From assembly GCA_043778225.1 (NCBI GenBank), contig JAYWGM010000086.1, positions 10,956-74,955 of the forward strand: 64,000 bases of DNA, read 5' to 3'. This document shows positions 15,072 through 57,332 of the stretch, piece after piece. The notes under the pieces are model-generated. The model was given only the letters and a program-made list of their open reading frames with translations. It did no database searches and was not told where the DNA came from. Positions within the stretch are counted from its first letter, which is position 1. Every line of letters begins with the position of its first letter. Origin of the DNA: Deinococcales bacterium. GTDB lineage: Bacteria > Deinococcota > Deinococci > Deinococcales > JAAFIG01. The position numbers and the translations under genes are program-made.

Positions 15072-18000
15072 ATAACATTTCTTCCCTTCTAGAGTCGCGC
15101 ATTTTGGTTTTAGATGGCGCAATGGGAACAATGATTCAGCAGCATAATCTGCATGAAAAAGATTTTCGTCACTCGAGTTTTACGTCGGTGCAAAGTTTAT
15201 TTGGCGATAATGACCTTCTGTCCATTTCGCGCCCTGATATTATTCAGGGTATTCACGAAGCGTATCTCGAGGCTGGTGCGGATATTATCAGCACCAATAC
15301 CTTTAACGCCACGGCTATTAGCCAACTCGATTATGAAATGCAAAGCCATGTGCGAGAAATCAATCTTGCGGCAGCACAGGTAGCTCGAGCAGCAGTAGAC
15401 AAATTCCAGAGTCTCGAGAAACCGCGTTTTGTGGCTGGGGCGCTTGGTCCAACGTCTCGCACCGCAAGTATTAGTCCTAAAGTTGAAGATGCAGCTTTTC
15501 GCAATGTCACCTTTGATGAACTGGTCGAGACCTACACCGAACAAGCCACAGCACTCTTGGATGGTGGTGTGGATTTACTGCTGCTCGAGACGATTTTTGA
15601 TACCTTAAACGCCAAAGCTGCCCTGTTTGCCCTCGAGAATCTGTTTGAGGCAAGGGGGCAACGAACCCCGTTAATCATTTCTGGCACGATTACTGACCAG
15701 TCCGGACGAACCCTTTCTGGGCAAACCGCCGAGGCATTCTATATTTCGGTCAAACACGCCAAACCGCTTGCTGTGGGCTTAAATTGTGCTTTGGGCGCAG
15801 AAATGTTCCGCCCACACCTTCGCGCCCTCTCGAGCATCGCTGGCGAGTTTATCAGTTGCTACCCAAATGCTGGTCTGCCCAATGCCTTTGGCGAGTACGA
15901 CGACACCCCCGAGTACATGGCGCAAGTGCTGGGTAACTTTGCCAAGGAAGGGCTGCTGAACCTTGTTGGAGGCTGCTGCGGCAGTACGCCGGCGCACATC
16001 AGGGCAATCGCTGATGCGGTGCGTGGAGTCGAGCCGAGAAGGGCGCAAGGGGCTTTGGTAGGTCAGCGACCCAGCCTGTTAGGTGCATCTTTAGGGTCAA
16101 GACAGGACAGACATAGGGGTCTGTCCCTACGGGATAATGGCGTTGTTGTAGGGGCGAACCCCCATATTCGCCCTGTAACAGAAAATGATTCACCAATTAC
16201 TAACCCGATGTTCTCTGGTCTCGAGCCATTGGTTATTACGGCTGACACGAATTTTGTGAACGTTGGTGAACGGAGCAACATCACAGGAAGTCCGAAGTTT
16301 TCCAAGGCGATTCTCGAGGGGGATTTTGAGGCGGGTCTGGTGATTGCACGGCAGCAAGTGGCGGCTGGGGCGCAAATTGTTGACATCAACATGGATGAGG
16401 GCTTGCTCGATTCCCAAGCCGCGATGGTTAAATTCCTCAGTCTGGTGGCGGGTGAACCAGAAATTGCTCGAGTGCCTTTGATGATTGACTCGAGCAAGTG
16501 GGATGTTCTCGAGGCTGGCTTAAAGTGCGTGCAGGGCAAAGCCATTGTCAATTCGCTGAGCCTCAAAGATGGTGAAACCGAGTTCAAGCGCAGAGCCGAG
16601 TTGGTGCGGCGGTATGGTGCGGCGGCGGTGGTTATGGCGTTTGATGAGGCTGGTCAAGCTGATGATTTAGAGCGCCGTAAAGAAATTTGCTCGAGGGCGT
16701 ATAACATTCTGGTCAGTAATGGCTGGGATGCGACCGATATTATTTTTGACCCGAATGTTCTGACGGTGGCTACAGGCATCGAAGCGCATAACGCTTATGC
16801 GCTGGATTTTATCCAAGCAACGCGCTGGATTAAAGAAAATCTGCCTGGAGCGCTGGTTTCGGGTGGTATCAGCAATGTTTCTTTTAGTTTTCGCGGCAAT
16901 AATACGGTGCGCGAAGCCATGCACAGTGTGTTTTTGTACCATGCGATTAAAGCTGGCTTAGACATGGGAATTGTCAATGCGGGAATGCTCGAGGTCTATG
17001 AAAATATCATTCCAGAACTGCGTGATTGTGTTGAAGATGTGATTCTCAACCGCCGCGAAGATGCCTCTGAACGGCTGCTCGAGATGGCAAATACGGTTAA
17101 AGGCGAGAAGAAATCTGAAACCAAAAAACTCGAGTGGCGTGGTTTTGATGTCGAGAAACGGCTCGAGTTTGCCTTGGTGCAGGGCATTAGCGACTTTATT
17201 GAAACCGATGTTGAAGAGGCACGGCACTTGTTTGCCCGTCCGCTCGAGGTCATCGAGCAACCCCTGATGCGCGGCATGAATGTTGTCGGGGATTTATTTG
17301 GGGCTGGTAAAATGTTCCTGCCGCAAGTGGTTAAGTCGGCTCGAGTGATGAAAAAAGCTGTGGCGTATTTAACTCCGTTTCTCGAGGCGGATAAACTGGG
17401 GAGTGGCTCGAGCAGCGCAGGTAAGGTGCTGATGGCAACCGTCAAAGGCGATGTGCATGACATTGGCAAGAACATTGTTGGTGTGGTGCTGGGTTGTAAC
17501 GGGTACGAAATTACGGACATGGGTGTGATGGTTTCGGCTGAACGGATTCTCGAGAAAGCCCAAGAAATCGGCGCGGACTTAATAGGTTTATCGGGTTTAA
17601 TCACGCCAAGTTTAGATGAAATGGTTCATGTGGCACGAGAAATGACGCGGCTTGGAATCACCACACCGCTTTTGATTGGTGGCGCAACCACTTCTAAAGC
17701 GCATACGGCTGTGAAAATCGAACCAGTTATACAAAGCCCAGTGGTTCATGTCTTGGATGCTTCTCGGGCTGTGACTGTGGCGCAAAAACTGTTATCCTCA
17801 GACCGCGATTCGTACCATGAAACCATCAAAGCTGAGTACGCTGCCCTGCGAATTGCTCGAGCCGAGCGCACGATTAAATTCTTGACGCTCGAGGAAGCCC
17901 AAAGCCGCAAACCAATGCTCGAGTTTGCGCCTGTCAAACCTGCGTGGCTTGGCACAAAAACCCTCGAGTACAGCATCTCGAGCCTGCGTGATTTGATTGA

Positions 18001-18904
18001 CTGGACACCATTTTTTATCGCTTGGGAATTAAAAGGGCGTTATCCATACATTTTTGACGATGCTGCCGTTGGCATAGAAGCCAAAAAACTATTTGCAGAT
18101 GCCCAGAAAATGCTGGATGTTCTCGAGACCAAACTCGAGGCAAAAGCGGTGATTGGTTTTTGGCAAGCCAATGCTGTCAACGACGACATTCATCTGACCA
18201 TTCCAACTGTAGGGGCGACCCTCGTGGTCGCCCAGCCAAAGCCCTATGCCTTTGCATCGGGCGAGTTCAGGGCGGGTATAAGACCCGCCCCTACGATTTT
18301 GCACACCATTCGTCAGCAGCGTGATCAGCGCGAGGCGAATACCGCCTTATCGGATTTTATCGCACCACTCGAGTCTGGACTAACAGATTATATCGGGGCG
18401 TTTGCTTGTACCATCCATGGTGCAGAGCAGATTGCTCGAGATTTTGAACTCGAGTTGGACGACTACAATTCAATTCTTTGTAAAGCCCTAGCAGACCGTC
18501 TTGCCGAAAGTTTAGCCGAGAAACTTCATGCCGATGTGCGCCGCGAGCATTGGGGTTACGCAAGGGACGAGAACTTGACAACTCAGGATTTAATCAAAGA
18601 GCGCTATGCGGGAATTCGTCCAGCACCGGGCTACCCAGCCCAGCCAGACCACACCGAAAAAGCCACGATTTTTGCACTTCTTGAAGCAGAGCGGATTGGT
18701 CTCGAGCTAACCGAAAGCTATGCCATGACTCCAGCCTCGAGTGTTTCGGGCTTGTACTTAGCACACCCAGACTCGAGGTACTTTGCGGTTGGGCGGGTGG
18801 CAAAAGACCAAGTGCAGGATTATGCGCTGCGTAAAGGCATCAGTCTCGAGGTGGCAGAGCGTTGGTTAGCCCCGATTTTAGGCTACGAGCCAATTTCATC
18901 TTAA
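15068..18904 (+). CDS. metH: Cobalamin-dependent methionine synthase, carrying two in-frame repeat insertions
   Basis: [33 protein letters not shown]. Confidence 0.97.
16064..16173. repeat. In-frame composite repeat in metH: 36-bp mini-element plus GTAG-type REP pair
   Basis: 16067-16102 matches nuoC/nuoI copies; REP hairpins at 16105-16130 (-) and 16148-16173 (+). Confidence 0.85.
18209..18294. repeat. In-frame GTAG REP doublet (REPIN-like) in metH
   Basis: GTAGGGGCGACCCTCGTGGTCGCCC ... GGGCGGGTATAAGACCCGCCCCTAC. Confidence 0.9.
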
Positions 18905-18943
18905 ATCGGGAACTCGAGACACAGGTTTGACGTACGATAGACC

Positions 18944-20293
18944 ATGCAAAGATTTTTTCTTGGATTTCTGGTCTTTGGGCTACTCGGTTTAGCCTTGGCG
19001 CAAAGCAACGAAGTGACTTGGTTAAACCAAAATGTTATTCCGATAAAAACCGTTCTGGCACAAAGTGGTTTGACCGACCTCGAGCCAGTTTCGGCTTTGT
19101 TGGGCGAGGCTCGGATGGTTGGGCTGGGCGAAGCGACCCACGGCACAAAAGAATTTTTCCAAGCCAAGCACCGCTTACTCGAGTTTCTGGTCACAAAACA
19201 CGATTTTCAAGTTTTTGCAATCGAAGCCAATTGGGCAAGCAGTTTTGCCTTAAACCAATATGTGCTTGGTGGGGCTGGCAATGGCAAGGCACTTTTGCAG
19301 CAGTATGCCAAAATCATGTGGGCTTGGCGTACCCAAGAAGTGCTGGATTTAATCGAATGGATGCGACTTTATAACCAAACTGCAACTCACAAAATTACTT
19401 TTACGGGTTTTGATATGCAAGAACCAGTGCCAGCCGTAGATTGGTTGGTGGCTTGGCTCGAGCAAAACGCCCCAGACCAAGCCACTCGAAGCGACGATTT
19501 ATTAGCTTGTATTCGCTTTTCTTTAGGCAATATTTTAAGTGTGGCTCGTTATACCGCCAATGGCGAAAATGGGGTGCAGCGTTGTGCGGCACAAATAGAC
19601 ACGGTGCGGCGAATTATTCAAAATCGGCGCACTACTTTTGAGGGCGGCGAGTACCAAACCGCTTTACAGATGGTGCGGGTTCTCGAGCAAGCCAATAGCT
19701 ATTACAAAGCCCGTTTTGTCAGTCAGGATTTACTGACCGCCGTCACCATCCGCGATACTTTTATGGCAGAAAATGCAGCTTGGCTCGAGAAAACCAGTGG
19801 GCAAAAAATCGTGCTTTGGGCGCACAATGGTCATGTCACTTTTAACCCCAAGATGCACTTTGGCTGGAAACCAATGGGGGCGCATTTGCGCGAAAAATAC
19901 AAAGATGCTTATCGTGTTTGGGGCTTTGCTTTTTTTGAAGGAAGTTTTTATGCCCAGTTGCTTGACTCGAGCGACCCAGCCCGCACGATCGTTGCCGCGA
20001 TGCTTGGTTTAGCTGCTAACCCAAGTGTGCAACGTGTACCAAATCCGGGGGTCGGCAGTTTTGAGGTTTTGTTTCGCGCCACAGGGCAGCCAATTTTTAT
20101 GCTCGATTTGCGTCGCTCGAGCCAAACCGAGGCTGCTTGGTTACGCCAGCCACGGCGCTTACAGATTATCGGGCAGAATTTGCCACCGTTTCGTGAACCT
20201 GAACCCGATTGGTACAGTTACGAGGCTGTGCTGCCCAACGACTTTGACGCAATTATTTATATTGATAAAACATCGCCAAGTACACCGATATAA
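18944..20293 (+). CDS. Secreted erythromycin esterase family protein
   Basis: VGLGEATHGTKEF, GFDMQ, RD-x2-MAEN, LWAHNGH. Confidence 0.88.
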   Translation: MQRFFLGFLVFGLLGLALAQSNEVTWLNQNVIPIKTVLAQSGLTDLEPVSALLGEARMVGLGEATHGTKEFFQAKHRLLEFLVTKHDFQVFAIEANWASSFALNQYVLGGAGNGKALLQQYAKIMWAWRTQEVLDLIEWMRLYNQTATHKITFTGFDMQEPVPAVDWLVAWLEQNAPDQATRSDDLLACIRFSLGNILSVARYTANGENGVQRCAAQIDTVRRIIQNRRTTFEGGEYQTALQMVRVLEQANSYYKARFVSQDLLTAVTIRDTFMAENAAWLEKTSGQKIVLWAHNGHVTFNPKMHFGWKPMGAHLREKYKDAYRVWGFAFFEGSFYAQLLDSSDPARTIVAAMLGLAANPSVQRVPNPGVGSFEVLFRATGQPIFMLDLRRSSQTEAAWLRQPRRLQIIGQNLPPFREPEPDWYSYEAVLPNDFDAIIYIDKTSPSTPI

Positions 20294-20320
20294 AAAAGTC
20301 CCCGCCACTTTTGGCGGGGA
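20292..20320 (-). terminator. Intrinsic terminator
   Basis: TCCCCGCCA/TGGCGGGGA stem next to an A-run (U-run on the minus strand). Confidence 0.7.
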
Positions 20321-20334
20321 GGCTCGAGTCTGTT

Positions 20335-22449
20335 TTAGCGCTTAAAGAGGAAATCAAGCGGCGAGAGGCTTGGAGTTGTTAAAGCCACCGAGTTCAGGGT
20401 GACACTGCAAGATTTATTCAGTGGGGTCAGGTTGGCATCTGGGTTTGGGGCTGTTCCGGCTGCGCCACCGTTGATGGTCGCACCATTGGTGGCTGGGTTT
20501 CTGGGGAAATCGCAGACATACACTGCATTGCGGGCATCAAAGACTTGAAAGCGAAACGAGCCACTTTGTAGGGCATAAGCAAAGACGGGTTTTGAAGTGC
20601 CGTTTTGGACTCCTGTACCCGTTGGGTCGCCATCGGAGTCGAGCTTGGTAAAGTTGAGCGCCCATGGTGCGAGTCCATCAATCAGTAAAGTCCATGCCTG
20701 ATTTGGTTTGGGTGGCAAACTGGCACTAATTTGTGGCACAGGCAAGGCTGGCGGTTGGACAATCGCAGGCGAACTGGGTAAGGCGGGTGGTGCATTCAAA
20801 GCTGGAACGGGCGCACCACCTGTTTGGATATTGCTATCAGCAGTAATCGTGGCGCTACAGGATTTATTCAAGTTTTGTCTTGGCTGGTTATTGCCACGCA
20901 AGGAAAATTGGGCTTGACCACCACTTAGAACCGCGCCATTACCAACCACGTTGGCAGGGAAAACACAAAAGTATATACCATCGTTGTTGGCAATCTGAAA
21001 ATTGGGTCGTCCGCCATCGCTATAAGCAAAAGTCGTGAAGGTCACGCCGTTCTGGACACTCGAGCCAGTTGGGTCGCCATCGGAGTCGAGCTTGGTAAAG
21101 CTGACCACCCACGGTGCAAGCCCATCAATATTGACCGACCATGTTTGCCCTGGTTTGGGCGGAAAACGGGCAATCAGGCTGCTCGGAATGGCTGGTGGCT
21201 GGACAGGTTGGGTTATACCAGCCAATTGGACACTCGAGCCAAAAGCTGCCACGCACGAGGTTTTTAAGTCAGTAAAATCATTGCCATTGCCACTTGCGTT
21301 GCGAACCGAACGCCCCGAACGCCCACCAATAAAAGCGTTTCCACTGACTTGCAGACGGTCAAAATCGCAAAAGTACGAACCCGAACGGTCGGCTGCGACC
21401 ATCTGAAAACGAAACTTTTTATCAGGGGTCTGAAATGCCCATGTTTCGGTGCGGTTGCCGCTTTGGGTAGCAAAACCAGTTGGGTCGCCGTCTTGGTCTA
21501 CTGTGGTAAAATTAAGCATCCATGGCGCGAGTCCATCCAAAGCCACCGTCCAAGTTTCGTTGGGCTTGGGTGGAAAATTTGGTGCGCCAACGGGGTTGTT
21601 AGTGACTGGCTGAACTGGTTGCGGGTTGACGGGCAGGGGTGGCGGTTGAACCACACTGGTTGGGTTGGGATTGACAGGAGCCACGATTGGTGCAGTAAAA
21701 CCTGTACCAAGTTGGGTTGTCCAAGGTTCGCCAAAACCACGAACATTTTGTTGAATCATCGGTATACCAAGCACCAAGGGTCTGCCCAAGGGCTGGCGGG
21801 TGTTGTTGTTGCCAGACACACCTGCACTGTGAACCGCCACCAATTCGCCGCGCAAGTTGTAAATCCCACCGCCAGAGCCACCCGGTCCAGACAAGGCATC
21901 GTGTTTCATCAGGTTGCGGTTCTCGAGAAAACCATTGACGCTGCCACTCGAGACCGTGATGGTTTCAGAAGTGCCATTGATGTCTGGGAAACCAAAGTTA
22001 AAAATCCGCTCGCCAATTCGTACCGCATTGGAATCGCCCAGTGGTACAGCTGGAAAACGTGTGCCACTTGGCACTGGATTACCGCGCAAATCGGTTGAGA
22101 CCTGAACAATCGCCAAATCCACATTAGGTAAACGAGCAATCACCCGCCCGATGTAACGTGGCTCTGGTGCTTGGTCTTCATTTTTCATCATCGAGATTCG
22201 CAGCACTGGACAAAGCTGATTGTTGTCTTCGTTGATGACGACATGATTGTTGGTCAGGATAATCCCTTCGCGCCCAATAAAACTGCCCGAGCCTTGCCAC
22301 AAACCTTTGCCAGCCGCATCAAAACAAACAAATTGGACCGAGGCTTTAATGATCGCATCAAAATACTCCGGTGATAAATTCTGAGCCTGAGCGGTTGTCC
22401 CCAACACCGCAACTGCACCCAAGACGACTTTCGACAACCATCCCCTCAT
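20335..22449 (-). CDS. Secreted trypsin-like serine protease with three C-terminal repeat domains
   Basis: Signal peptide; TNNHV, DLA, GPGGSGG triad; three PPKP-x3-W...DGDPTG repeats. Confidence 0.8.
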   Translation of the reverse strand: MRGWLSKVVLGAVAVLGTTAQAQNLSPEYFDAIIKASVQFVCFDAAGKGLWQGSGSFIGREGIILTNNHVVINEDNNQLCPVLRISMMKNEDQAPEPRYIGRVIARLPNVDLAIVQVSTDLRGNPVPSGTRFPAVPLGDSNAVRIGERIFNFGFPDINGTSETITVSSGSVNGFLENRNLMKHDALSGPGGSGGGIYNLRGELVAVHSAGVSGNNNTRQPLGRPLVLGIPMIQQNVRGFGEPWTTQLGTGFTAPIVAPVNPNPTSVVQPPPLPVNPQPVQPVTNNPVGAPNFPPKPNETWTVALDGLAPWMLNFTTVDQDGDPTGFATQSGNRTETWAFQTPDKKFRFQMVAADRSGSYFCDFDRLQVSGNAFIGGRSGRSVRNASGNGNDFTDLKTSCVAAFGSSVQLAGITQPVQPPAIPSSLIARFPPKPGQTWSVNIDGLAPWVVSFTKLDSDGDPTGSSVQNGVTFTTFAYSDGGRPNFQIANNDGIYFCVFPANVVGNGAVLSGGQAQFSLRGNNQPRQNLNKSCSATITADSNIQTGGAPVPALNAPPALPSSPAIVQPPALPVPQISASLPPKPNQAWTLLIDGLAPWALNFTKLDSDGDPTGTGVQNGTSKPVFAYALQSGSFRFQVFDARNAVYVCDFPRNPATNGATINGGAAGTAPNPDANLTPLNKSCSVTLNSVALTTPSLSPLDFLFKR

Positions 22450-22572
22450 AGATAACCTCCGTTGTGAATCTTATTGTAAACCCAAAACCTGTTTTTGACC
22501 TTGAATAAACCTTCATACTCGAGGACAGTCTAAAAAACGGGTGTTACAGTTGGCGCAACAAAATTTTTAGAG

Positions 22573-22646
22573 GGCAGGACAGACATATTTTACAGGCAGG
22601 ACAGACATATTTTACAGGCAGGACAGACACGGGGGTCTGTCCCTAC
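22573..22646. repeat. GTAG-type REP with 22-bp tandem duplication of one arm
   Basis: GGCAGGACAGACA at 22573, 22595, 22617; 22621-22646 is 24/26 identical to metH 16105-16130. Confidence 0.85.
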
Positions 22647-22668
22647 AGGCGAATGACCTGGAAGCCAT

Positions 22669-23871
22669 TCACAGGCGAATGACCTCGAGCCAGTCGCCAA
22701 TGGCTCGAGCTTCATCAGGCGGGACAATTGCTAGGGCGTTGCTTTGTACCAAACTGCGTAGCACTTGCGAACTCTGGTTAGAGAAAGCCGAGACGCTGTA
22801 ATGCTCACCAGTCCAAGTCAGGTTGGCTCGCCACAAGCCTTGTTTTGCCCCCGCGCTCTTAAAGGCGCTGCTGGCTTTGGCACGAACCGTTTCGTAGGCT
22901 GGCTCGAGAATGCCTAGCTGGATAAAAAGTGCGGCTTTAACCACGACATCAAAAACTACCAGACTCGAGACTGGATTGCCTGGCAAACCAAAGACGGGAA
23001 TGCCCTGTAAATGCCCCAGAATCGGCGGTCCGCCGGGTTTAACCCGAATTCGCCAAAAGTCAATTGTGCCTTGGGTCTCGAGCAGTTTTCGCACAAAATC
23101 GCGTTCTCCCATCGAAACCCCGCCAATCGTTAAGACCAAATGGGCTGCACCAGCCGCCAGAATTGCACTTTTGGTGTTCTCGAGGTCGTCTGGGACTTTG
23201 GGCAATAAAATCGGCTCTGCCCCCATTTCGAGCAATTCGGCAGCTAAACCATAACTGTTGGCGTTGTACACTGCGCCTTCTGGTAAAGGCTGACCGGGTT
23301 CGATAATCTCGTCACCAGTGCTTAAAATAGCAATTTTTGGGCGCTCGAGAACGGGCAGGGTGGCATAACCCATGGCAGCTGCCAATGCCAGACTCGAGCC
23401 GTTGAGGCGTGTACCTTTGGGCAAGTATATTGTGCCAGTCTCGAGGTCTTGCCCCTTCAATCTAATTTCTGGTACGGCTGGTTGGTGCAGCAGCACAAAA
23501 TCACCGTCTCGGGTGGTGTGTTCGACCATCGCAATACCCGTCGCGCCCAATGGGACAGCCCCACCTGTAAAGACCTTGACGGCTTGCCCAGACTCGAGCG
23601 ACTGCCCAAAGGCTTTTGCCCCCGCCGCAACTTCGCCCACGAGCCGCAAACGCACAGGGGTTTTTGGGGTGGCGCTCAAGGTTTCCTCGAGTTGTACTGC
23701 ATAGCCATCCAAAGCACTGTCATTGGTGTTGGGATGGTCTACCAAGCTGCTTAAATCGGCTGCCAGCACCCGATTGCTTGCCTCGAGCAGAGGCACATTC
23801 TCGAGTTTAAGAGTTGGCAAGGCAGCCACAAGGGCAGCCACTGCTTCGGGGATCGTCAGGTCAGTTCGCAT
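22669..23871 (-). CDS. moeA: Molybdopterin molybdotransferase
   Basis: SALDGYA, STGDEI, GGVSMG, VKPG, GLPGNPVSS. Confidence 0.93.
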   Translation of the reverse strand: MRTDLTIPEAVAALVAALPTLKLENVPLLEASNRVLAADLSSLVDHPNTNDSALDGYAVQLEETLSATPKTPVRLRLVGEVAAGAKAFGQSLESGQAVKVFTGGAVPLGATGIAMVEHTTRDGDFVLLHQPAVPEIRLKGQDLETGTIYLPKGTRLNGSSLALAAAMGYATLPVLERPKIAILSTGDEIIEPGQPLPEGAVYNANSYGLAAELLEMGAEPILLPKVPDDLENTKSAILAAGAAHLVLTIGGVSMGERDFVRKLLETQGTIDFWRIRVKPGGPPILGHLQGIPVFGLPGNPVSSLVVFDVVVKAALFIQLGILEPAYETVRAKASSAFKSAGAKQGLWRANLTWTGEHYSVSAFSNQSSQVLRSLVQSNALAIVPPDEARAIGDWLEVIRL

Positions 23872-47326: not shown

Positions 47327-47363
47327 ATCACCCCTTTTTCGAGAAAATTATCTCGAGGCTTGC

Positions 47364-47393: not shown

Positions 47394-47408
47394 TCGTAGA
47401 ATGACCAG

Positions 47409-49317: not shown

Positions 49318-50615
49318 AGGAACTCTGGGCTTCGGCGGGTGGTCGCACCTTTCTAACGATGTGGTTAGGACAAAGTATTTCTAGTTTTGGCTCGAGACTG
49401 ACCATTTTTGCCTTTGGAATTTGGTTGTACAAAGAAACTGGTTTGGCTACGCCGCTTTATTTAACGGCTTTGGCGGGTTTTCTGCCGGGTGTGTTGCTCG
49501 CTCCGATTGCTGGTGTACTGGTCGACCGTTACGACCGCCGTAGCGTGATGTTATTGGTCAATACCGTTCACACACTGGTGACGCTGGCGCAGTTTTTTGT
49601 TATTTCAAGCGGACAGACCAATATACCAATTATTCTGGGGCTGCTTGCTATTAGCAGTGCCGCCGAGACCTTCCAGTTTCCAGCCGAAGCCTCAAGCATG
49701 AGTGTGCTTGTACCCAAAGAACAACTGGGGCAAGCCAACGGCTTATACGCGATGATGAGTGGGGCTGGAGATTTAGTTGCACCGATTGCTGGAGCGCTTT
49801 TGGTCTCGAGCATCGGCATTGCTGGGATTTTACTGATTGACTTGGCGAGTTTTGCCTTTGAATTCTTAACGCTGTTTATCATTCGAATTCCCAGACCAGC
49901 ACAGTCGGATATTGGCTCGAGAATGCAGGGTGGGGTGCTGGCTCAGGCTCGAGATGGTTTTAGGTTCATTACCCAAAGACCGGGCTTGTTGAGTCTGCTG
50001 ATTACGTTTTCGGGAGTGAATTTTTTCTTGGGAATCGTGCAGAATTTGCAAGTCCCTTTAGTTCTCTCGAGAAGTACCGACCCGAGTGCGGTTGGTATTA
50101 TTGCCTCGAGTTTTGGTGTGGGTGTGTTGCTGGGGGGCTTGTATATGACCAGTACGGGTGGACTAAAACCTCGAGTGCATGGGGTTTTTGCGGGTATTGG
50201 TTTATCAGGGTTACTTGGCACAGCCCTGTTTGGTTTGGCGCAAAGTATTCCAATTTGGATGTTGGCTAATTTTTTTGCGGGTTTTTTGTTGCCAGTCCTC
50301 AACGGCGCAAGCCAAAGCATTTGGCAATCCAAAACCCCGCCCGACATTCAAGGCAGGGTTTTTGCAGCACGGCGGCAAATCGCTCAGATTACTACTCCGA
50401 TGGCGTTTATCATTGCGGGTCCAGTGGCAGATTTGGTCTTTAAGCCATATTTCTCGAGTAACGACTCTTGGGCGTGGCTCTTGGGTGGCTCGAGTGGTCG
50501 TGGGTACGCAGCCATGTTTGTCCTGTTTGGGATTCTGGTGTCCTTCTGGGGTTTTGCAGCGTATTTGCGTCCGGCGGCTCGAAATGTCGAGCGTGATATT
50601 CCAGATGCAACTTGA
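49314..50615 (+). CDS. MFS transporter (DHA3-like)
   Basis: GVLVDRYDRR motif A, QGRVFA, about 12 TMs. Confidence 0.9.
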   Translation: MKELWASAGGRTFLTMWLGQSISSFGSRLTIFAFGIWLYKETGLATPLYLTALAGFLPGVLLAPIAGVLVDRYDRRSVMLLVNTVHTLVTLAQFFVISSGQTNIPIILGLLAISSAAETFQFPAEASSMSVLVPKEQLGQANGLYAMMSGAGDLVAPIAGALLVSSIGIAGILLIDLASFAFEFLTLFIIRIPRPAQSDIGSRMQGGVLAQARDGFRFITQRPGLLSLLITFSGVNFFLGIVQNLQVPLVLSRSTDPSAVGIIASSFGVGVLLGGLYMTSTGGLKPRVHGVFAGIGLSGLLGTALFGLAQSIPIWMLANFFAGFLLPVLNGASQSIWQSKTPPDIQGRVFAARRQIAQITTPMAFIIAGPVADLVFKPYFSSNDSWAWLLGGSSGRGYAAMFVLFGILVSFWGFAAYLRPAARNVERDIPDAT

Positions 50616-50617
50616 TC

Positions 50618-51010
50618 TTAAATTTGTGCTTGTGGGAATACAGTACGAACTTCTGGCAGTTTCTTGTCTCTTGGTCGTAAAATGATTTCAACGTCGCAAT
50701 TAGCAGCTTGTGCATGATCCAAAAGTGTTGAAAGTGTCAAGTTACTGTGCTGCGATTCAATTTGTGTCACCCGAGGGGCGCTAAGATGCAATGCTTTTGC
50801 GATGTCCTTGCTGCGTAAACCTGCCTGACGACGAACTTGTTTTAAGGCTTGACTGATGGCATTGGTAAGAATGATTTCTCGAGTTTCCTCAAGCATTGCC
50901 GCAGGGCTTCGTGTTTTTTGAAGTGTATCTTTAGGAACATAAACCTCGAGTATCATGCCATTTTTTTCATCAGGCGTGAGTGCTGCCAATAAGTTTTCGA
51001 GTGTTTTCAT
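50618..51010 (-). CDS. XRE-family HTH antitoxin (HigA-like)
   Basis: LKQVRRQAGL...IAKAL...RVTQIE HTH; coupled to upstream gene. Confidence 0.8.
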   Translation of the reverse strand: MKTLENLLAALTPDEKNGMILEVYVPKDTLQKTRSPAAMLEETREIILTNAISQALKQVRRQAGLRSKDIAKALHLSAPRVTQIESQHSNLTLSTLLDHAQAANCDVEIILRPRDKKLPEVRTVFPQAQI

Positions 51011-51420
51011 GATGCCCTCCGTAACATGGTTATTGGGTCATGCTTAAAAGCAAGATAGATTTCTAGTGCTTCTTGCAGCTTATTTGGATTTACGTTTTTT
51101 TCAGGTTTAATTTCTGCATTGACCAGTACAGCAACAAGCACAGCCATATTTTCTTCAAAGATTTGCAATGGAAACCAGTAAACTCGTGCGCCACCTTTGA
51201 TACCGCCTCGAGAGCGGGTTTTAAGTTCCCATATTGGTGTTCCTTGAAGTGTTTTTGCATAACGACTTTCAAGTTCGTTCTGTACAAGGTCTTCAAGCAT
51301 TTGAATAATTGAATTGAGGGCTTCTTGATGGTTGGCTTGACTTATTTCGATTAAATTTTCGATAATCAAGGGGTGTTCTGCGGTTGGCTTATTAGGGTGT
51401 CGAGCTTCAATAAGACGCAC
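51007..51420 (-). CDS. RelE/HigB-like toxin
   Basis: KTLQGTPIWELK...ARVYWF; toxin-first arrangement. Confidence 0.7.
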   Translation of the reverse strand: MRLIEARHPNKPTAEHPLIIENLIEISQANHQEALNSIIQMLEDLVQNELESRYAKTLQGTPIWELKTRSRGGIKGGARVYWFPLQIFEENMAVLVAVLVNAEIKPEKNVNPNKLQEALEIYLAFKHDPITMLRRAS

Positions 51421-51455
51421 AATTAAGTTATATATTAATTTATTCTTTTCGTCAA
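51421..51455 (-). promoter_or_regulatory. Leaderless promoter and operator of the TA pair
   Basis: TTGACG-17 bp-TATAAC, 6 nt from the GTG; AATTAA-n8-TTAATT palindrome. Confidence 0.55.
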
Positions 51456-51573
51456 GAACTTTGGATCTTCAATCTTGAGAGTCTGTAGCGCGTGGGACAT
51501 TCTGGGTTTGACCTTCTCGAGCCACACCACTAAAATGAGACGCTTATCGTTCTATTTTAGAGGAGGCTGGAAA

Positions 51574-51966
51574 GTGGATTACACAACAGAGGTGACGGGT
51601 GCTTTGTACATTGGTCTCTTTGCATTGATTGGAGCGGGAATTGTTTACATCACGCTCGAGATTGCAAAGTTAGCGTTTTTTTATGCTGGTTCGCGGCGCT
51701 TTGGTGGCAATAAAGCCAAGGACTCGGTTTATGAATGCGGTATGGAAACCATTGGCGACACCAACGTTCAGATAAATTTGAACTATTACTTGTTTGCCAT
51801 GCTTTTTGTGCTGTTCGATGTTGAGGCGGCGCTGCTTTATCCGTGGGCAGTGGCGTTTGATACGCTCGGTGTGGCTGGTTTACTGGCGGTCATTTCGTTT
51901 TTAATTATTTTGTTCCTTGGCTTTATCTATGCACTGCGTAAAGGAGCCTTAAAATGGGTTTATTAG
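51574..51966 (+). CDS. nuoA: Complex I subunit A
   Basis: YECG, FVLFDVE, LYPWA, KGALKW; GTG start after GAGGAGG. Confidence 0.92.
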
Positions 51967-52505
51967 GCACACAATCTCGCCCCGACAACGTTATTCTTGG
52001 TTCGTTGGATGATTTAATCAACCTCTCGCGCTCCCGCAGTTTGTGGCCTCTTACCTTTGGCATTGCCTGCTGTGCGATCGAAATGATGAACTCCTCGGCT
52101 ACTCGTTACGATATGGATCGCTTTGGGGTTTTTTACCGCAACACGCCGCGCCAAGCCGATGTGATGATTGTCTCGGGGACAGTCAACAAAAAAATGGGTA
52201 AGGTCGTGCGCCAACTCTGGGAGCAAATGTCCGAACCCAAATGGGTCATCAGCATGGGCGCGTGCGCCAACCAAGGTGGACCGTTTCGTCAGGGCTACAG
52301 CGTGGTCGAGGGTGTGGATAAAATTATCCCAGTGGATATTTATGTTCCCGGTTGCCCACCACGCCCCGAAGCCCTGATGCAAGCGCTTTTGTTACTGCGT
52401 GACAAAATTGCTGACCCAGCCGCCCGTTATGTGCCGGGAATGCAAATGGATGCCGATTTTGACCCTCTGGCAGAACCCGGTCACGATGGTCGGGTGTTAC
52501 TGTGA
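51954..52505 (+). CDS. nuoB: Complex I subunit B
   Basis: [25 protein letters not shown]. Confidence 0.96.
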
Positions 52506-53536
52506 GCGAACCAAGCACACCACCTGTTGCTCTTGCGCCCGTCAAGGTCTGGCACATCCCCCTGCTCGAGTCCGACAAAGTAGAGACTTTAATAGCTGGC
52601 TTAAAAGCTCGAGCCGAAACAATTTTAGACACTATTCAAATCACAGTCGCGCTCGAGGATTACCGTGCCTTGTGCGAACGCCTTTTCAAAGCTGGTTTTG
52701 ATTTCCCCTCGAGCATGAGCGGCACAGATTTTGAATGGGGCTTGGGGGTTGCCTTGCAACTCCAGCAACTCGAGTCCAAACGCAAGGTCACGGTGCGGAC
52801 GTACTGCACTTACGCCCACGCCCATGTCCCAACCGTTTCTGACCTCTGGGGTGGTTTAGACTGGCACGAACGCGAAGCCTACGACCTTGTGGGGATTATT
52901 TTTGACGGTCACGAGGACAGTGTAAACGGACACCCGCGCCGAATCTTGCTCGAAGACCACTGGAGCATTCACCCGCTCCAAAAGCGCTACAACACCCGTG
53001 GCTATTTAATTCACGGCTGGACAGAAAAACCCTTCCCAACCCCAGCCCCGTGGGAAGAAGGTTTCCAGCCCTTTGCTGGCGCACCAGCCCCCGTCGCCCA
53101 CATCGCACCCCCAGCCCCCAAAGCTGTTGCTTCTGCCATTGCCCCTAACCCCATCAACGAGCGACCCAGCCCGTCAGGTGCATCTTTAGGGTCAAGAGAG
53201 GGGGTCGCCGTAGCATCCCAAGCCCGTCAGGTGCTGCTTTCAGGGCAAGAAGGCGGGGGGAGTTTGCCCGCCGAGGCTGTCGTTGCTAAAGTTGAAGCTG
53301 CTCTTGACCCTGCTCCCGTCTCGAGTTCCGAATCCGACCCACCCAAAAAAGTCGCCAAAAAATGGATTCCCAAAGGCGAATCCGCCCCTGTTATTGAAGC
53401 TGACTCGAGCCAACCCGAGCCAGTCGCCGTCTCGAGTCCCGAGCCAGTTATCGTCTCGAGTCCCGAACCGATTCTCGAGCCAGTCGCAGAAAAACCAGTC
53501 AATCCAAAAATTAAGCGTTGGGAACCAAAAAGCTAA
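52502..53536 (+). CDS. nuoC: Complex I subunit C with a long disordered C-terminal tail
   Basis: [27 protein letters not shown]. Confidence 0.9.
53146..53278. repeat. 133-bp in-frame repeat shared with nuoI; contains two 36-bp mini-elements
   Basis: 126/133 identical to 57077-57209 by hand alignment. Confidence 0.92.
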
Positions 53537-53548
53537 GGAGGGGACGAT

Positions 53549-54733
53549 ATGACCGCAGCAGTCGCAGAAAAACCAAATAACGCTCGCAATACGTCTGGTT
53601 CTGTCATGAACCCGACAACTGTCGAAAAGGTCGCGGGGCGCTCAGACGAGATGCTCCTGAACTTAGGTCCACAGCATCCAGCCACCCACGGTGTACTCAG
53701 GGTGCTGATGGGTGTGGATGGCGAGCGTGTGACTCGAGCCATTCCGCACATTGGATACTTGCATCGCAACCACGAAAAACTCGAGGAAGTTCGCACCTAC
53801 CCGATGTGCATTCCCTACACCGATCGCATGGATTATGTCTCGGGGATGCAGAACGAATTGCCTTTGTGCTTGGCAGTCGAAGAAATGCTCGGCATCGAAG
53901 TACCTGAACGCGCCAAGTACGTCCGCACAATTTTATTTGAACTGAGCCGTATCGCTTCGCACATGGTCTGGATTGGCACGTATATGCTCGATTTGGGGGC
54001 AATCACCCCGTTTTTATATGCTTTCCGTGACCGCGAAATGATTTTAGACATCATCGAAGAAACCGCAGGAGCGCGGCTTTTGCCAAATTACTTTACCTAT
54101 GGTGGTATCCGCCGCGATCATCACCCACGGATGATGCAGGATATTCTCGAGTTCCTAACCTGGTTCGAGAAAAAGCTGCCTGAGTACGAAGCCTTAACAA
54201 TAGATGCGCCAGTCTTCCAAGCCCGTACCGTTGGCGTGGGTGTCCTCGACCCACAAGTGGCATTAAACCATGGTGTAACCGGACCAAATTTGCGCGGTAG
54301 CGGTATCGGCTGGGATTTACGCAAAGACGACCCATACGATGCCTATCCGCAGATGGACTTCGAGGTCTGTGTTGAGTATGGCTGCGATGCCTACTCGAGA
54401 AGCCGCGCTCGTTACCGTGAGTTCCGCGAGAGCATTAAAATTATTCGCCAAGCCATTGCGATGTGTCCAAAAGGTGGCGCGTACTTGCCAAAACTGCCGC
54501 GCCTCAAACCTGTGGCGGGTATGGAACGTTACCGTGCGGTCGAAATCTCGAGAGGACACTTAGGGGTGCATATTGTGGCGGATGGTTCGGAAAAACCGTG
54601 GCGCTCCAAACACCGCAGCCCTAGTTTTTGCACCTTGCAAGCCTTGGCAGATATGGCTGTGGGTTCTAAATTCTCGGATGCGATTGCGATTCTGGGCAGC
54701 ATTGACATTGTACTAGGGGAGATTGACCGATGA
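53549..54733 (+). CDS. nuoD: Complex I subunit D
   Basis: NLGPQHPATHGVLR, GYLHR, DRMDY, GEIDR. Confidence 0.96.
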   Translation: MTAAVAEKPNNARNTSGSVMNPTTVEKVAGRSDEMLLNLGPQHPATHGVLRVLMGVDGERVTRAIPHIGYLHRNHEKLEEVRTYPMCIPYTDRMDYVSGMQNELPLCLAVEEMLGIEVPERAKYVRTILFELSRIASHMVWIGTYMLDLGAITPFLYAFRDREMILDIIEETAGARLLPNYFTYGGIRRDHHPRMMQDILEFLTWFEKKLPEYEALTIDAPVFQARTVGVGVLDPQVALNHGVTGPNLRGSGIGWDLRKDDPYDAYPQMDFEVCVEYGCDAYSRSRARYREFRESIKIIRQAIAMCPKGGAYLPKLPRLKPVAGMERYRAVEISRGHLGVHIVADGSEKPWRSKHRSPSFCTLQALADMAVGSKFSDAIAILGSIDIVLGEIDR

Positions 54734-56196
54734 GTTTTCTCGAGAATAAAGAAGCCCGTTTGCCGCTTGAGCGTATTTCTGCGCCGTCCGATAAGCATTA
54801 CCGAATGCGAATGAAGCATCACGGCTTGCTCAATGCCAATCCGCGTAAATCTGGTTTGTTGGCAGCCATTATTGGTTATGCGCTGCTTTTTGGGGCGGCG
54901 CATGGGGTTTTGATTCTGGCGTTTCAAGTTATTCCAGCGCTCCTAACCAGTGGCTTACCGTTTCCGTGGACTGGTTTTGGTTTAGCCAAGGATAGTTTTT
55001 GGTTTAACGTCATTTACGGCTTACTCGCGCCTGTGCTTGCCTTTTTGTTTGTGGCGGTGGTGGCGCTGATCAACATTCTGATGCTGCGTAAGTACCTCGC
55101 TAAAGTCCAGAACCGTTATGGACCGCTTCACAACGGACCTTCTGGCAGTTTACAAACAGTTTATGACGCACTCAAACTGGTCTCCAAAGAAGATTACACC
55201 CCAAAAATGGTCGAAGAAACCATCTTCACGCTTGCGCCAGTGCTGGTTTTTGTTTCTGCTTTCTTATTAATGGCGGTTATTCCATTTGCGCCTGGATGGG
55301 TTTTTGCCAATGTCGAAGCGGGCGCAATTTTTATTATTGCGGCTGGCACAATCGGCGGCTATGGTGTCTTGCTGGCGGGTTGGAGCATGAACAACAAGTA
55401 CGGCTTAATGGGTGGCTTACGTGCCGCCGCCCAACTTGTTTCTTACGAAGTGCCGCTTTCGATTAGCTTACTTTCGGTCTGTGTTTACGCTGGTAGCATG
55501 AACCTTTCTAAAATTGTTGAAGCACAACAAGCCCTGTGGTTTGCGATTCCGCTTTTTATTCCCTTCGTTATTTACTTAATTGCGGGTTTAGCCGAACTTA
55601 AAATGACTCCGTTTGACCTCCCAGAAGCCGAATCCGAACTGGTGGCTGGTTTTAACACCGAGTACGGCGGAATGCGTTTTGGATTTTTCTTTGTTGCCGA
55701 ATTTGCCGAGTTGTATTTACTTCCCGCACTTATGGCGGTTTTCTTTCTGGGTGGCTGGTTTCCACCAAGCATTCCAACCTTTAACATTCCGTTTCTATCC
55801 GAATGGTCGGGTGGCTCGAGTACCTTACAACTGATGCTCAAAGCCAACATCGCCGAGGGTGAAACCATGACTTGGTGGAATACCCTCTTTCAGCCGGGCG
55901 GCTTGCTGGTTGGCGCACAATACAGCTTTTGGTTTTTACTTAAAGGCGCGGCTGGTGTCTATTTCTATATGTGGATTCGGGCGACCCTGCCGCGCTTCCG
56001 CGATGACCAACTGATGGAACTGTGCTGGAAAGGCTTAATTCCACTGTCCTTAATCGGTTTGGTCTTGGCGGCGGTCTCGAGACTGCTGCCCGCTGTTGGC
56101 ATCACAATTTCGATTCTGGTCGGTGGCGCATTTATTATTTTGATTCTGCGCGGTGCGTTCTTTCCAGCTTCCTCGAGTAAACAGGTGAAAGCATGA
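54730..56196 (+). CDS. nuoH: Complex I subunit H, with extensions
   Basis: QNRYGP, NNKY, SYEVP, PFDLPEAESELVAG, RATLPRFR. Confidence 0.93.
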   Translation: MSFLENKEARLPLERISAPSDKHYRMRMKHHGLLNANPRKSGLLAAIIGYALLFGAAHGVLILAFQVIPALLTSGLPFPWTGFGLAKDSFWFNVIYGLLAPVLAFLFVAVVALINILMLRKYLAKVQNRYGPLHNGPSGSLQTVYDALKLVSKEDYTPKMVEETIFTLAPVLVFVSAFLLMAVIPFAPGWVFANVEAGAIFIIAAGTIGGYGVLLAGWSMNNKYGLMGGLRAAAQLVSYEVPLSISLLSVCVYAGSMNLSKIVEAQQALWFAIPLFIPFVIYLIAGLAELKMTPFDLPEAESELVAGFNTEYGGMRFGFFFVAEFAELYLLPALMAVFFLGGWFPPSIPTFNIPFLSEWSGGSSTLQLMLKANIAEGETMTWWNTLFQPGGLLVGAQYSFWFLLKGAAGVYFYMWIRATLPRFRDDQLMELCWKGLIPLSLIGLVLAAVSRLLPAVGITISILVGGAFIILILRGAFFPASSSKQVKA

Positions 56197-57332
56197 GCCT
56201 CTTAAAAGATATTTGGAGCGCTGTGTCCGGCATTGGCAAGGGCATGGAAAAAACCTACGAAGAACAATTCGATCCAATTTTTACCGAAATGTACCCGTTT
56301 GAAATGCCAAAACTGCCACCAACCAGTGTTCAGAGTTTGGCACTGATTAAAAACGAGGATGGCTCGGACAGGTGTGTTTCATGCCTCGCGTGCGAAAAAG
56401 TCTGCCCCAGCCAAGTGATTACCATCGAGCGCAAGAAAAACCCAGCCGGTAAAGGCTTTGTCCTCGAGCGCTTTGACATTGATTTGGTTAATTGTATGTA
56501 CTGCGCCGCCTGTGTTGAGTCCTGCCCAGCCAGTGCAATCGTCACGATTCAGGACTTTGAAATGAGTACCCCGAACCTACAAACCTTAAAAGCCGACAAA
56601 GACTTTTTAGATTTCCAAGGCATTCGCGCCCAACAGTGGTACAGCCCAAAAATTGGGGTTGAATACCGCGAGAACGTCAGCAACGACAATATCCACGGTG
56701 CAATTGTCAAAGCGCCTTTAATGGATCAACCCGGTGGTGCAGCCGAACTTGAGAAACTTCGTGCGGCTGGCACAGAAATTCCAGTCAACAATGCCCGTCG
56801 TCCAGCCAATGCGATGTCGGAATTATCGGCTTTGGTCTACAAAGAACTCAAGTCCGAACCCATCAGCGCCCCAGCCAAAAAACTCGAGAATACCGTACCT
56901 GTTGCGGTCAACATCCCTGTAACCATTCCCGCCCCTGTTGCTGTTGCCGTCGAAACTGTCTCGAGCGCCGTGCCATCTGCCCCAAAATCCAAGAAAATCA
57001 AACGCTGGGGAGAACCTGCTACCGACGACTCGAGCCAACCCGAAGCCGCTTCTGCTATTGCCGTCGCGCCCGTAATTAACCCCATCAACGAGCGACCCAG
57101 CCCGTCAGGTGCATCTTTAGGGTCAAGAGAGGGGGTCGGCGAAGCGCCCCAAGCCCATCAGGTGCTGCTTTCAGGGCAAGAAGCCGGGGGGAGTTCGCCC
57201 GCCGAGGCTACCCTCGAAAAAGCCCAAGCCGCTCCAGTCTCGAGCCTTGAGCCTGTTGCCCAAGTCATCTCGAGTCCAGAACCCGAAAAACCAGTCAATC
57301 CCAAAATCAAACGTTGGGAGCCAAAATCATGA
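56193..57332 (+). CDS. nuoI: Complex I subunit I with a long disordered C-terminal tail
   Basis: Two CxxCxxCxxxCP motifs. Confidence 0.92.
   Translation: MSLLKDIWSAVSGIGKGMEKTYEEQFDPIFTEMYPFEMPKLPPTSVQSLALIKNEDGSDRCVSCLACEKVCPSQVITIERKKNPAGKGFVLERFDIDLVNCMYCAACVESCPASAIVTIQDFEMSTPNLQTLKADKDFLDFQGIRAQQWYSPKIGVEYRENVSNDNIHGAIVKAPLMDQPGGAAELEKLRAAGTEIPVNNARRPANAMSELSALVYKELKSEPISAPAKKLENTVPVAVNIPVTIPAPVAVAVETVSSAVPSAPKSKKIKRWGEPATDDSSQPEAASAIAVAPVINPINERPSPSGASLGSREGVGEAPQAHQVLLSGQEAGGSSPAEATLEKAQAAPVSSLEPVAQVISSPEPEKPVNPKIKRWEPKS
57077..57209. repeat. 133-bp in-frame repeat shared with nuoC
   Basis: See 53146-53278. Confidence 0.92.

Follow-up and report, generated by a model that had tools for sequence, protein, structure and literature searches.

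RESULTS

Short repeat units lie within metH, nuoC and nuoI

The window, the whole stretch of 64,000 nt that was analysed, comes from an uncultured Deinococcales genome (4.03 Mb, 89% complete) and carries short repeats within three open reading frames. The features discussed below, in window coordinates, are:

15068..18904, + strand: metH, host gene, open frame of cobalamin-dependent methionine synthase
16066..16104, + strand: 39-nt unit (G + type A 36-mer + CA) in the MetH linker, with the homocysteine and pterin domains on either side
16103..16130, − strand: GTAG-type REP hairpin (GGACAGAC..GTCTGTCC CTAC on the + strand) that abuts the metH unit and is read as DRHRGLSL
16148..16176, + strand: second GTAG REP (GTAGGGGCGAAC..TTCGCCCTGT) inside metH, forming an inverted doublet with the REP at 16103..16130
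18209..18294, + strand: further REP doublet, in frame in the MetH activation domain, where congeners vary
52502..53536, + strand: nuoC, open frame with a long C-terminal tail
53147..53264, + strand: composite in the NuoC C-terminal tail, a double-hairpin repeat (AACCCC.TCAACGAG GGGGTCGCCG.AG GCGGGGGGAGTT) with one element nested per loop
53161..53199, + strand: type A 39-nt unit in nuoC
53213..53251, + strand: type B 39-nt unit in nuoC, a decayed member of the CCCAAGCCCG..GCTGCTTT subfamily
56193..57332, + strand: nuoI, open frame with a long C-terminal tail and the same end motif as nuoC
57078..57195, + strand: composite of the nuoC type in the NuoI C-terminal tail
57092..57130, + strand: type A 39-nt unit in nuoI
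57144..57182, + strand: type B 39-nt unit in nuoI

An earlier note on this DNA had described five 36-mers of two types, A and B, in frame in MetH, NuoC and NuoI, and all five were verified. Type A is found exactly at 16067-16102, 53162-53197 and 57093-57128 (0 in 100 shuffles), with 2 of the 36 positions distinguishing the copy in metH from those in nuoC and nuoI, as had been reported. Type B is exact at 57145-57180, but the copy at 53214-53249 carries 3 mismatches (0 in shuffles). The flanks also read as described: the 36-mer stands between two CAG triplets in metH, and type A between two GAG triplets in both nuo genes; type B has AAG..AAG flanks in nuoI and TAG..AAG flanks in nuoC. In its 39-nt form the repeat adds 13 codons in frame, as it does in metH, where the Pfam domains at amino acids 13-318 and 400-637 of MetH bracket the unit. 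The nuoC and nuoI copies are not independent, a caution already given in the note, because both lie within one shared composite of ~118 nt. The NuoC tail and its end motif are conserved across the genus, whereas the composite is not. Elsewhere in the genome, the double-hairpin repeat occurs with the first nested copy only (C48:83087-83167), and an A/B hybrid copy of the element is present at C36:5560.

The metH site is filled in the own genome and in genomes G001 and G003, and in congener G007 a single CAG stands exactly at the position of CAG-36mer-CAG. The GTAG REP at 16103..16130 is found in G007 without the 36-mer, and the 22-mer of this REP family occurs 10 times in uninterrupted form. 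The filled site is covered with 0 differences by contigs of two independently re-assembled public runs, one of which may be the source sample. Contigs from four runs on metH showed no junction skipping the 39 nt; such contigs lose rare variants and are uninformative on polymorphism.

The element is abundant, lineage-specific and variable among congeners

With more than 100 copies in the genome, the 36-mer is indeed the very small insertional repeat with many further copies that had been proposed. Near-full copies number 113 at E<=1e-4, with 132 matches at E<=1e-3, and at <=2 mismatches the pattern matches 66 times, against 0 for the reversed control. Among the other genomes of this family, 15 of 18 were found to carry the element, against 0 of 12 from sister families; the element family is lineage-specific. 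Copies differ between congeneric species, being gained and lost. Congener G003 holds 25 exact-pattern copies, 17 of them with a collinear counterpart in the own genome, and about 2 distinct loci are filled in both. For loci from other metagenome-assembled genomes, 7 of 97 had a collinear match in the own genome, too few for counts of gain and loss.

Copies occupy both orientations and four reading frames inside proteins, and some lie directly upstream of genes within a multi-copy leader. Their orientation relative to local GC skew was 37 vs 24 (p=0.12, not significant, with 24 weak-skew sites set aside). The viral contigs searched for the element pattern gave 0 matches. One CRISPR array was found (C80, 60-62-nt period); its repeat is unrelated to the element, and the element's own arrays have no spacers, which rules out a CRISPR repeat as its identity.

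Empty alleles were sought and found, both in metH (G007, above) and at C15:81342, a site in unique sequence away from other repeats, where G001 lacks exactly 39 nt. At C24:6960 three states occur: empty, REP only, and REP with a nested copy. PurL has in-frame copies at two sites; two nested 39-nt copies (78 nt in total) lie there in a REP that G007, G006 and G004 have in uninterrupted form. DnaX contains four tandem in-frame copies that are missing from 6 of 6 aligned congeners, and DnaE is a further protein with an in-frame copy. A tRNA anticodon loop is interrupted by one copy, and 4 of 4 congeners have it uninterrupted. Three further sites gave no empty-site comparison: at C94:5474 one flank only is conserved in congeners, C45:2319 had no match at E<=1e-25, and the flanks of C60:3137 fall on different contigs. 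Since related species keep uninterrupted sites, these genome comparisons identify the 36-mer repeat as a real, very small mobile element of this Deinococcales genome.

The inserted unit is 38 or 39 nt long

Flanks were grouped into 84 clusters, 44 of which had an identifiable empty counterpart, orthologous or paralogous. The insert measured 39 nt in 28 of these and 38 nt in 16. As read from filled and empty alleles, the inserted unit is thereby shown to be 38 or 39 nt, namely G + 36-mer + N or NA. The base preceding the 36-mer is G in all ungapped copies listed; thus, the G is part of the element. The earlier note had generalised from the window to a 3-bp duplication with a changing NAG triplet, and this rule does not hold in general. 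Besides the 38-nt inserts, only 11 of the 28 39-nt clusters have matching triplets on both sides and 17 have unequal ones, AAG..CAG is as frequent as CAG..CAG (6 each), and the junction overlap varies between 0 and 3 nt. Insertion falls at A|G in 25/44 clusters and at N|G in 36/44, and an A|G reading (C|T on the other strand) is possible at both boundaries in 22/44, at one in 14/44 and at neither in 8/44. The aligned junctions show that the element inserts precisely and without a consistent target duplication, mostly at an A|G step, so that AG or NAG appears duplicated. A precise unit of G + 36-mer + N/NA fits them better than a general 3-bp target duplication. The left and right N agree in ~10 cases vs 6.5 expected from the margins (hand count), and some real duplication, or the copying of composites, may lie behind this agreement.

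The element consensus, GCGACCC.GCCCGT.AGGTGC...TTT..GGTCAAGA.A, contains a 6-bp outer stem (GAYNNN/NNNRTC) in which compensatory changes keep the pairing. At stem pair 7-29, 38 sequences have CG and 26 have AU, and at pair 8-28, 31 have UA, 9 have CG and 6 have AU; the covariation score of the stem was reached by 0/500 shuffles, with slid controls near zero. The ends are asymmetric, with GC 5' of the stem and AAGA(N)(A) 3' of it, so that 2 nt precede the stem on one side and 4-6 nt trail it on the other. The loop is 19 nt long and partly structured, and several of its positions are conserved besides the stem. The element is thus a short imperfect palindrome with a conserved hairpin and tens to hundreds of copies, as REP/REPIN sequences are. 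A GTAG or CGTC tag at a hairpin foot is absent from the consensus, CGTC occurring inside the loop only; on the putative active strand, TCTT stands 5' of the hairpin foot. Four reading frames through the copies are open in nearly all of them, a fifth in ~70% and the sixth in about a quarter. Given these open frames and the 39-nt length, copies can persist as 13-residue inserts in the linkers and tails of essential proteins.

Element copies are nested inside one another's loops and inside the loops of GTAG-type REP hairpins. The junctions show a preference for the loops of hairpin repeats, both those of other repeats and, at the NAG|GTGC step, the element's own; insertion at this step leads to nested copies and to 38/39-nt tandem arrays.

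The genome encodes a single RAYT-like transposase

No mobilising enzyme is encoded in the window, in agreement with the note, and a RAYT-like Y1 transposase gene is present elsewhere in the genome as a single copy (C32:27219-27881). Its product matches Pfam Y1_Tnp with 36 bits (cut-off 23), and among NCBIfam models REP-associated tyrosine transposase scores best (E 5e-16), at 58.9 bits against a cut-off of 80. The REP 17 nt upstream of the gene holds a nested element copy, and G006 has a copy of a different subfamily there. Across the genus, the upstream neighbour is a GTAG REP, with a nested copy in 2 of the 5 loci with flanks inspected, and at 3/20 RAYT loci an element copy lies within ~60 nt upstream; what borders the gene is the GTAG REP rather than the 36-mer itself. 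Some genomes without a detected element have RAYT homologues as well (G010, G013 and 5/12 sister-family genomes), and none was found in G005, which has 29 element copies and is 84% complete.

The note had also suggested looking for a transposase flanked by the same ends as the element; none was found near multi-copy flanks or between paired copies. Among 11 open reading frames scanned between paired copies, 9 have ordinary housekeeping or regulatory domains, 1 has no Pfam match and 1 is RAYT-like. A larger insertion sequence bounded by copies with multi-copy flanks was rejected, as the adjoining genes are ordinary. An IS605 tnpA on C28, the sole PF01797 match of the whole-genome search, was likewise rejected as a source; its ends are unlike the 36-mer by eye and form unrelated hairpins.

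DISCUSSION

The best explanation of these sequence data, to which we give a probability of roughly 0.5, is that the repeats are ultra-short, single-hairpin, REP-like mobile repeats moved as single-stranded DNA by a RAYT-type Y1 enzyme. The element would fold and move in single-stranded form, being cut and rejoined in trans by a RAYT-type (TnpA-REP) enzyme, a Y1/HUH tyrosine transposase. The active strand would be the one on which TCTT lies 5' of the hairpin foot and each unit boundary reads C|T, and the candidate enzyme is the product of the single RAYT-like gene. E. coli TnpA-REP requires REP DNA in single-stranded form and cuts at C|T on the 5' or the 3' side of the hairpin, and tandem copies can arise through its strand transfer; it also requires a GTAG tag, which the element lacks (PMC3333891).

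Could the element be a MITE-like, 36-bp non-autonomous transposon, moved by a DDE transposase through a staggered cut with a 3-bp (NAG) target duplication? The one CAG of the empty metH allele is compatible with this, as are matching triplets that vary by site (CAG in metH, GAG in the nuo composite, AAG at C94:26920, AGG on C61 and C51), the 11/28 clusters with identical triplets, and G/G pairs that are commoner than the margins predict. Nevertheless, we regard such an origin as quite improbable. Inserts of two lengths with 0-3 nt of overlap do not amount to a fixed-length target duplication, and the unequal triplets in 17/28 39-nt clusters speak against it as well; at one orthologous pair AAG[36]CAG faces a single AAG (L149 vs C79:44296 of the own genome), and one unique-sequence site has the flanks CAG..GAA. 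Moreover, the ends are not terminal inverted repeats, insertion is oriented relative to an asymmetric target, and no parent insertion sequence with the same ends was found in the 89%-complete genome beside multi-copy flanks or between paired copies.

An account with no dedicated enzyme, in which host recombination, gene conversion or template switching among clustered hairpin repeats acts through 0-3 nt of microhomology, would explain the variable junction overlap, the strong tie of copies to other repeats, and the sites whose repeats differ between species (metH linker, PurL, DnaX). The A/B hybrid at C36:5560 is itself a recombinant between nested copies, and the entire nuo composite has indeed been copied between two genes. 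We think this account unlikely, because nothing in template switching would enforce the two lengths and identical ends seen in all 44 resolved clusters, and because insertions also occur in unique sequence away from repeats (C15:81342, the tRNA anticodon loop). The compensatory stem changes across subfamilies also argue against it, since they imply a structure that something recognises. That the repeat is retained for a function, for instance as a hairpin bound by protein or RNA, as a regulatory site or as a useful peptide module, with selection rather than mobility setting its distribution, would fit the conserved stem and loop positions and the copies just upstream of genes in the multi-copy leader. 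It is highly improbable in view of the ~2 distinct loci filled in both G003 and the own genome (despite 17/25 collinear copies), the use of both orientations and four reading frames inside proteins, the position of copies in linkers and tails, and the interrupted tRNA anticodon loop.

Transposition by a RAYT-type enzyme remains our preferred explanation, and a bolder version of it may be offered tentatively. The element may be the smallest bacterial transposable unit with base-defined ends: a 38-39-nt TCTT-tagged hairpin, excised and re-inserted at C|T in trans by a domesticated RAYT-type enzyme and aimed at single-stranded hairpin loops including its own, which would steadily supply 13-residue inserts to essential proteins and reach even a tRNA anticodon loop. 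If so, comparing its filled and empty sites would make REP-type mobility directly legible in a natural setting. To our knowledge, such mobility has never been shown in vivo. The spread of REP-like repeats is still unsettled, and most families are too old or too variable for clean insertion junctions; here, the exact limits of the moved unit follow from dozens of filled/empty pairs, from nested copies and from its two discrete lengths. With a candidate enzyme gene at hand, the cut-and-paste hypothesis is directly testable. In addition, a 39-nt repeat that repeatedly adds a peptide to DnaE, DnaX, PurL, MetH and two complex I subunits without destroying them bears on the evolution of protein linkers and tails and on the annotation of such genomes.

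Among known systems, REP/REPIN sequences are described as 20-40-nt imperfect palindromes of high copy number that vary among close relatives, cluster with other repeats, amplify in tandem, and have C|T-compatible boundaries and no clear target duplication, with a single, vertically inherited RAYT-like gene in the genome (PMC2817692, PMC3116915, PMC3333891, PMC3733652); the element resembles them in all these respects. REPs within coding regions, often of replication and repair genes, are already described (Di Nocera 2013, PMC3733652). Unlike REPs, the element has TCTT 5' of the hairpin foot in place of a GTAG/CGTC tag, a long loop that is its own preferred target, and unit ends and empty sites that are legible to the base. 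A REPtron-like arrangement of the element around the RAYT gene is not apparent, and GTAG REPs coexist with it in the host genome and serve as its targets.

The proposed chemistry would be like that of the IS200/IS605 family (IS608, ISDra2), with a single-stranded hairpin, a Y1 HUH enzyme, oriented insertion directed by a short motif, and no duplication. Those insertion sequences, unlike the element, are 1.3-2 kb long and have their own tnpA and two different ends. Closer in size are the small dispersed repeats of Nostocaceae, families SDR1-8, which Elhai and colleagues reportedly described in 2008 as 21-27 nt long. We know of no enzyme for these repeats, and likewise of none for the element. 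SDR4-6 are, like it, very small, nested and precisely inserted at a fixed position in another repeat, SDR5 being placed between the 3rd and 4th base of HIP1 (PMC4390886; SDR5 also in PMC5861425). The element differs from the SDRs, going by secondary descriptions of them, in phylum, sequence and length (38-39 vs 21-27 nt), in being often translated inside essential genes, and in its covarying stem. Finally, the comparison with Rickettsia palindromic elements made in the earlier note is apt at the level of outcome. Both are palindromic repeats inserted in frame in unrelated housekeeping genes, to which they add a peptide; Rickettsia elements are described as ~100-150 bp long and from obligate intracellular alpha-proteobacteria (PMC10969869), whereas the element belongs to another lineage, is about one quarter of that size and adds 13 residues.

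Element copies in the window

The earlier note had described a 36-bp mini-element of two types (A and B) that is flanked by 3-bp direct repeats, read as a duplication of NAG targets, and adds 13 codons per copy. The five 36-mers lie where it had placed them, between the triplets it had reported, and all sit in three long ORFs, which Pfam identified as cobalamin-dependent methionine synthase (metH), the 30-kDa complex I subunit NuoC, and the ferredoxin-type subunit NuoI. No match to either type is expected in shuffled sequence.

Element copies in the window (start of the 36-mer)
16067, type A, exact match to the pattern
53162, type A, exact match to the pattern
57093, type A, exact match to the pattern
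57145, type B, exact match
53214, type B, 3 mismatches

Type A is translated as a 12-residue peptide with two variants. The nuoC and nuoI copies are part of a single common composite of ~118 nt, a double-hairpin repeat whose two loops each hold one element; this repeat recurs with one nested copy at C48:83087-83167 (contig:position in the genome containing the window, hereafter the own genome).

NuoC (52502-53536) and NuoI (56193-57332) end in Pro/Ala/Ser-rich C-terminal tails of ~170-200 residues each, which across the genus share the end motif ..EEKP(R/K)NPKIKRWEP(K/R)S and also contain KKVAKKW.PKGE or KSKKIKRWGEP. The hexamer CTCGAG is very frequent in and around these genes and throughout the window (e.g., 16228-16233, 53323-53328, and 57030-57035).

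Family size and distribution

Further copies were present in the own genome (4.03 Mb, 107 contigs, 48.7% G+C, 89% complete). With up to 6 substitutions, the metH variant was found at 40 places and the nuo variant at 58; a profile search gave 132 hits at E<=1e-3 and 113 near-full hits at E<=1e-4. Several contigs start or end within a copy, so the real copy number is higher than counted; all genomes compared are MAGs, and copy counts are lower bounds because repeats break assemblies.

When one genome per prokaryotic species was searched, the exact degenerate pattern occurred at no fewer than 97 loci, and among the matches listed, all 80 record titles were Deinococcales or Deinococcota MAGs. Allowing up to 2 mismatches, we found 66 matches in the own genome. 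Of the 18 other genomes examined from its family, which are kin and so not independent, 15 carry the pattern and three (G002, G010, and G013) gave no match; none was found in the 12 genomes that represent four sister families of the order. The viral contigs scanned held no match. A reversed-pattern control gave 0 matches in every genome scanned.

Filled and empty sites

Empty-site alleles exist in related genomes (G-numbers). In the metH linker, G007 reads ..AGT CAG GACAGAC.. with a single CAG, and the own genome, G001, and G003 read ..GGT CAG [36] CAG GACAGAC.., where [36] is the 36-mer. The G006 linker has CAG [36] GAG and then another kind of hairpin repeat. That hairpin is also present in G005, where its loop is occupied by a type-B-like copy between AAG triplets (AAG..AAG); more distant relatives have short metH linkers and none of these repeats. 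At C15:81342, a unique sequence within an ORF, exactly 39 nt are missing in G001. At C24:6960, G003 and G005 have an empty site, G007 has only a GTAG-tagged hairpin repeat (REP, separate from the element), and the own genome has the REP plus a nested copy. The own-genome PurL contains a REP holding two copies, one within the other (78 nt, 26 codons), and this REP is uninterrupted in G007, G006, and G004. DnaX of the own genome has four tandem reverse copies (LLDPKDAPHGLGS and variants) that are absent in 6/6 aligned congeners, and DnaE has one copy nested in a REP. Reverse copies with a 13-residue reading are nested in REPs elsewhere along the tails of NuoC of G003 and NuoI of G004.

One copy interrupts a tRNA anticodon loop outside the window (C28:45855-45960). 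The interrupted tRNA is still recognised by Rfam (39.9 bits over 106 nt); in four congeners its place is taken by a 74-nt tRNA with no interruption. This tRNA belongs to a short run of tRNA-like genes that have odd lengths and abut one another (loci L236-L239 and L247). Congeners carry differing anticodons at its position (Arg-TCT, Thr-TGT, Ser-TGA), and the neighbours include an 85-nt tRNA whose 'anticodon' was called as 4 bases.

G003 has 25 copies that match the pattern exactly. For 17 of these, a collinear counterpart was found in the own genome; the two genomes share a filled site at only about two distinct loci, metH and C79:72419-72540, and two G003 rows match the second of these. Element turnover between congeners is high. 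We put at about nine in ten the probability that the element is a hairpin repeat that inserts precisely and has been mobile in recent times.

The inserted unit and its junctions

From the own genome and retrieved loci we took 151 copies that differ in their flanks, grouped them into 84 flank clusters, and resolved 44 of these by requiring that deletion of 36+x+y bases give a 22-mer that exists elsewhere, a requirement that favours copies in repeated hosts. The insert was 39 nt in 28 clusters (junction overlaps of 0, 1, 2, and 3 nt in 7 each) and 38 nt in 16 (2, 6, 8, and 0, respectively); no other length was selected in any of the 44. The base preceding the 36-mer is G in all ungapped copies listed. 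A unit G+36+N accounts for all 16 of the 38-nt clusters, and for 22 of the 28 39-nt clusters the possible solutions include G+36+NA; for the rest, exact 22-mer matching permitted only another register.

As a rule, the 3-bp NAG duplication did not hold: flanking triplets were identical in only 11 of the 28 39-nt clusters (19 shared the last two bases), and 16 of 44 clusters have 38-nt inserts. AAG..CAG is as frequent as CAG..CAG (6 clusters each), one orthologous pair shows AAG[36]CAG versus a single AAG, and the unique-sequence site is flanked by CAG..GAA. Of the 44 clusters, 25 have their insertion point at an A|G step and 36 at N|G. The tidy 3-bp duplication of the window is thus one outcome when a unit with G at its start and, usually, A at its end enters an A|G step, and does not reflect a general staggered cut. 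Since matches between the left and right N somewhat exceed the number predicted from the margins (hand count), genuine duplication in some cases, or the copying of entire composites, may also occur.

Hairpin structure and reading frames

In an alignment of 68 distinct sequences from other genomes and two from the window, gathered by a pattern that fixes most positions, both free stem pairs covary (0/500 shuffles attained the observed score; slid controls were near zero). Pair 7-29 is CG in 38 sequences and AU in 26; pair 8-28 is UA in 31, CG in 9, AU in 6, and unpaired in 24. Compensating changes are likewise present in own-genome variants that the pattern does not cover (GACTCA/TGAGTC, GATTCC/GGAATC, and GAACC/GGTTC). 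RNAalifold added a small inner stem, GCCC..GG.GC, and the element's own target, NAG|GTGC, is located in this region.

Across 56 ungapped own-genome copies of the 39-mer, forward frames 0, 1, and 2 are open in 54, 40, and 13, and reverse frames 0, 1, and 2 in 56, 54, and 0, respectively. Real proteins use at least four frames of the element, and the inserts are located between Pfam domains or in tails.

Other repeats in the same genomes

GTAG-tagged REP families (GTAGGGGCGAGGC.., GTAGGGACAGAC.., GTAGGGGCGAAC.., and GTAGGGGCGACC..) are translated inside proteins, with 16- and 10-residue readings; they occur at 16103-16176 and 18209-18294 of the window and at many other loci, and vary between congeners at the same protein sites. 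A multi-copy leader, ..TAACCGACTAAAAGGAGTGATA.., lies upstream of unrelated genes (e.g., C12:1-100, C71:1-100, and C98:44480-44560) and at times holds an element copy; its uninterrupted 22-mer was counted 10 times. Tandem heptamer-like arrays of AAAGGT[TCA], which we take to be reminiscent of cyanobacterial STRR repeats, are frequent element hosts (e.g., C48:78230-78330, C51:81920-82000, and C94:26860-26940). A CRISPR array runs from C80:16 onward with a 60-62-nt period, one repeat 20-mer recurring 44 times; its repeat is unrelated to the element, and a CRISPR link was rejected.

A candidate mobilising enzyme

The own genome has one RAYT-like gene, in single copy and outside the window (C32:27219-27881), whose protein has HVH and Y motifs, a Pfam Y1_Tnp match of 36 bits, and REP-associated tyrosine transposase as its best NCBIfam match. 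Its position after the same upstream gene, presumably trpE by its product as named from sequence, is conserved across the family. The gene itself contains an in-frame inverted REP doublet, with a 20-residue reading, between the HUH and tyrosine motifs.

The element resembles products of HUH/Y1 single-strand transposition in its precise unit without consistent duplication, oriented insertion beside a short motif, selected hairpin, preference for hairpin loops, and head-to-tail arrays with unit period (39 nt at C1, C15, and C51; 38 nt at C42). Read on the complementary strand, the unit is T(N)TCTT-hairpin-GC, and its boundaries fall at C|T. E. coli TnpA-REP is described as requiring a folded single-stranded REP, which it cleaves at C|T on either side, and as generating tandem copies through strand transfer (PMC3333891). 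Immediately upstream of the RAYT-like gene is a REP that has received the element independently in the own genome and in G006. Against this link, RAYT homologues occur in genomes where the element was not found, no homologue was found in G005, the 36-mer has no GTAG, and a skew test was not significant; because of this mismatch, the missing tag, and the skew result, we regard the RAYT-like protein as a possible but rather doubtful mobilising enzyme.

Comparison with known systems

A literature search not aimed specifically at these MAGs turned up no paper describing repeats of this kind in the lineage. The element differs from REPs, which are already described inside genes, often those of replication and repair (PMC3733652), in failing the GTAG/CGTC tag test, and from MITEs in failing both the terminal inverted repeat and the duplication tests. 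In-frame palindromic inserts are given as the hallmark of Rickettsia RPEs (PMC10969869), and Nostoc SDR5 is described as a very small repeat that enters a fixed position of another repeat, HIP1 (PMC4390886). We file the family with REP-like, very small mobile repeats.
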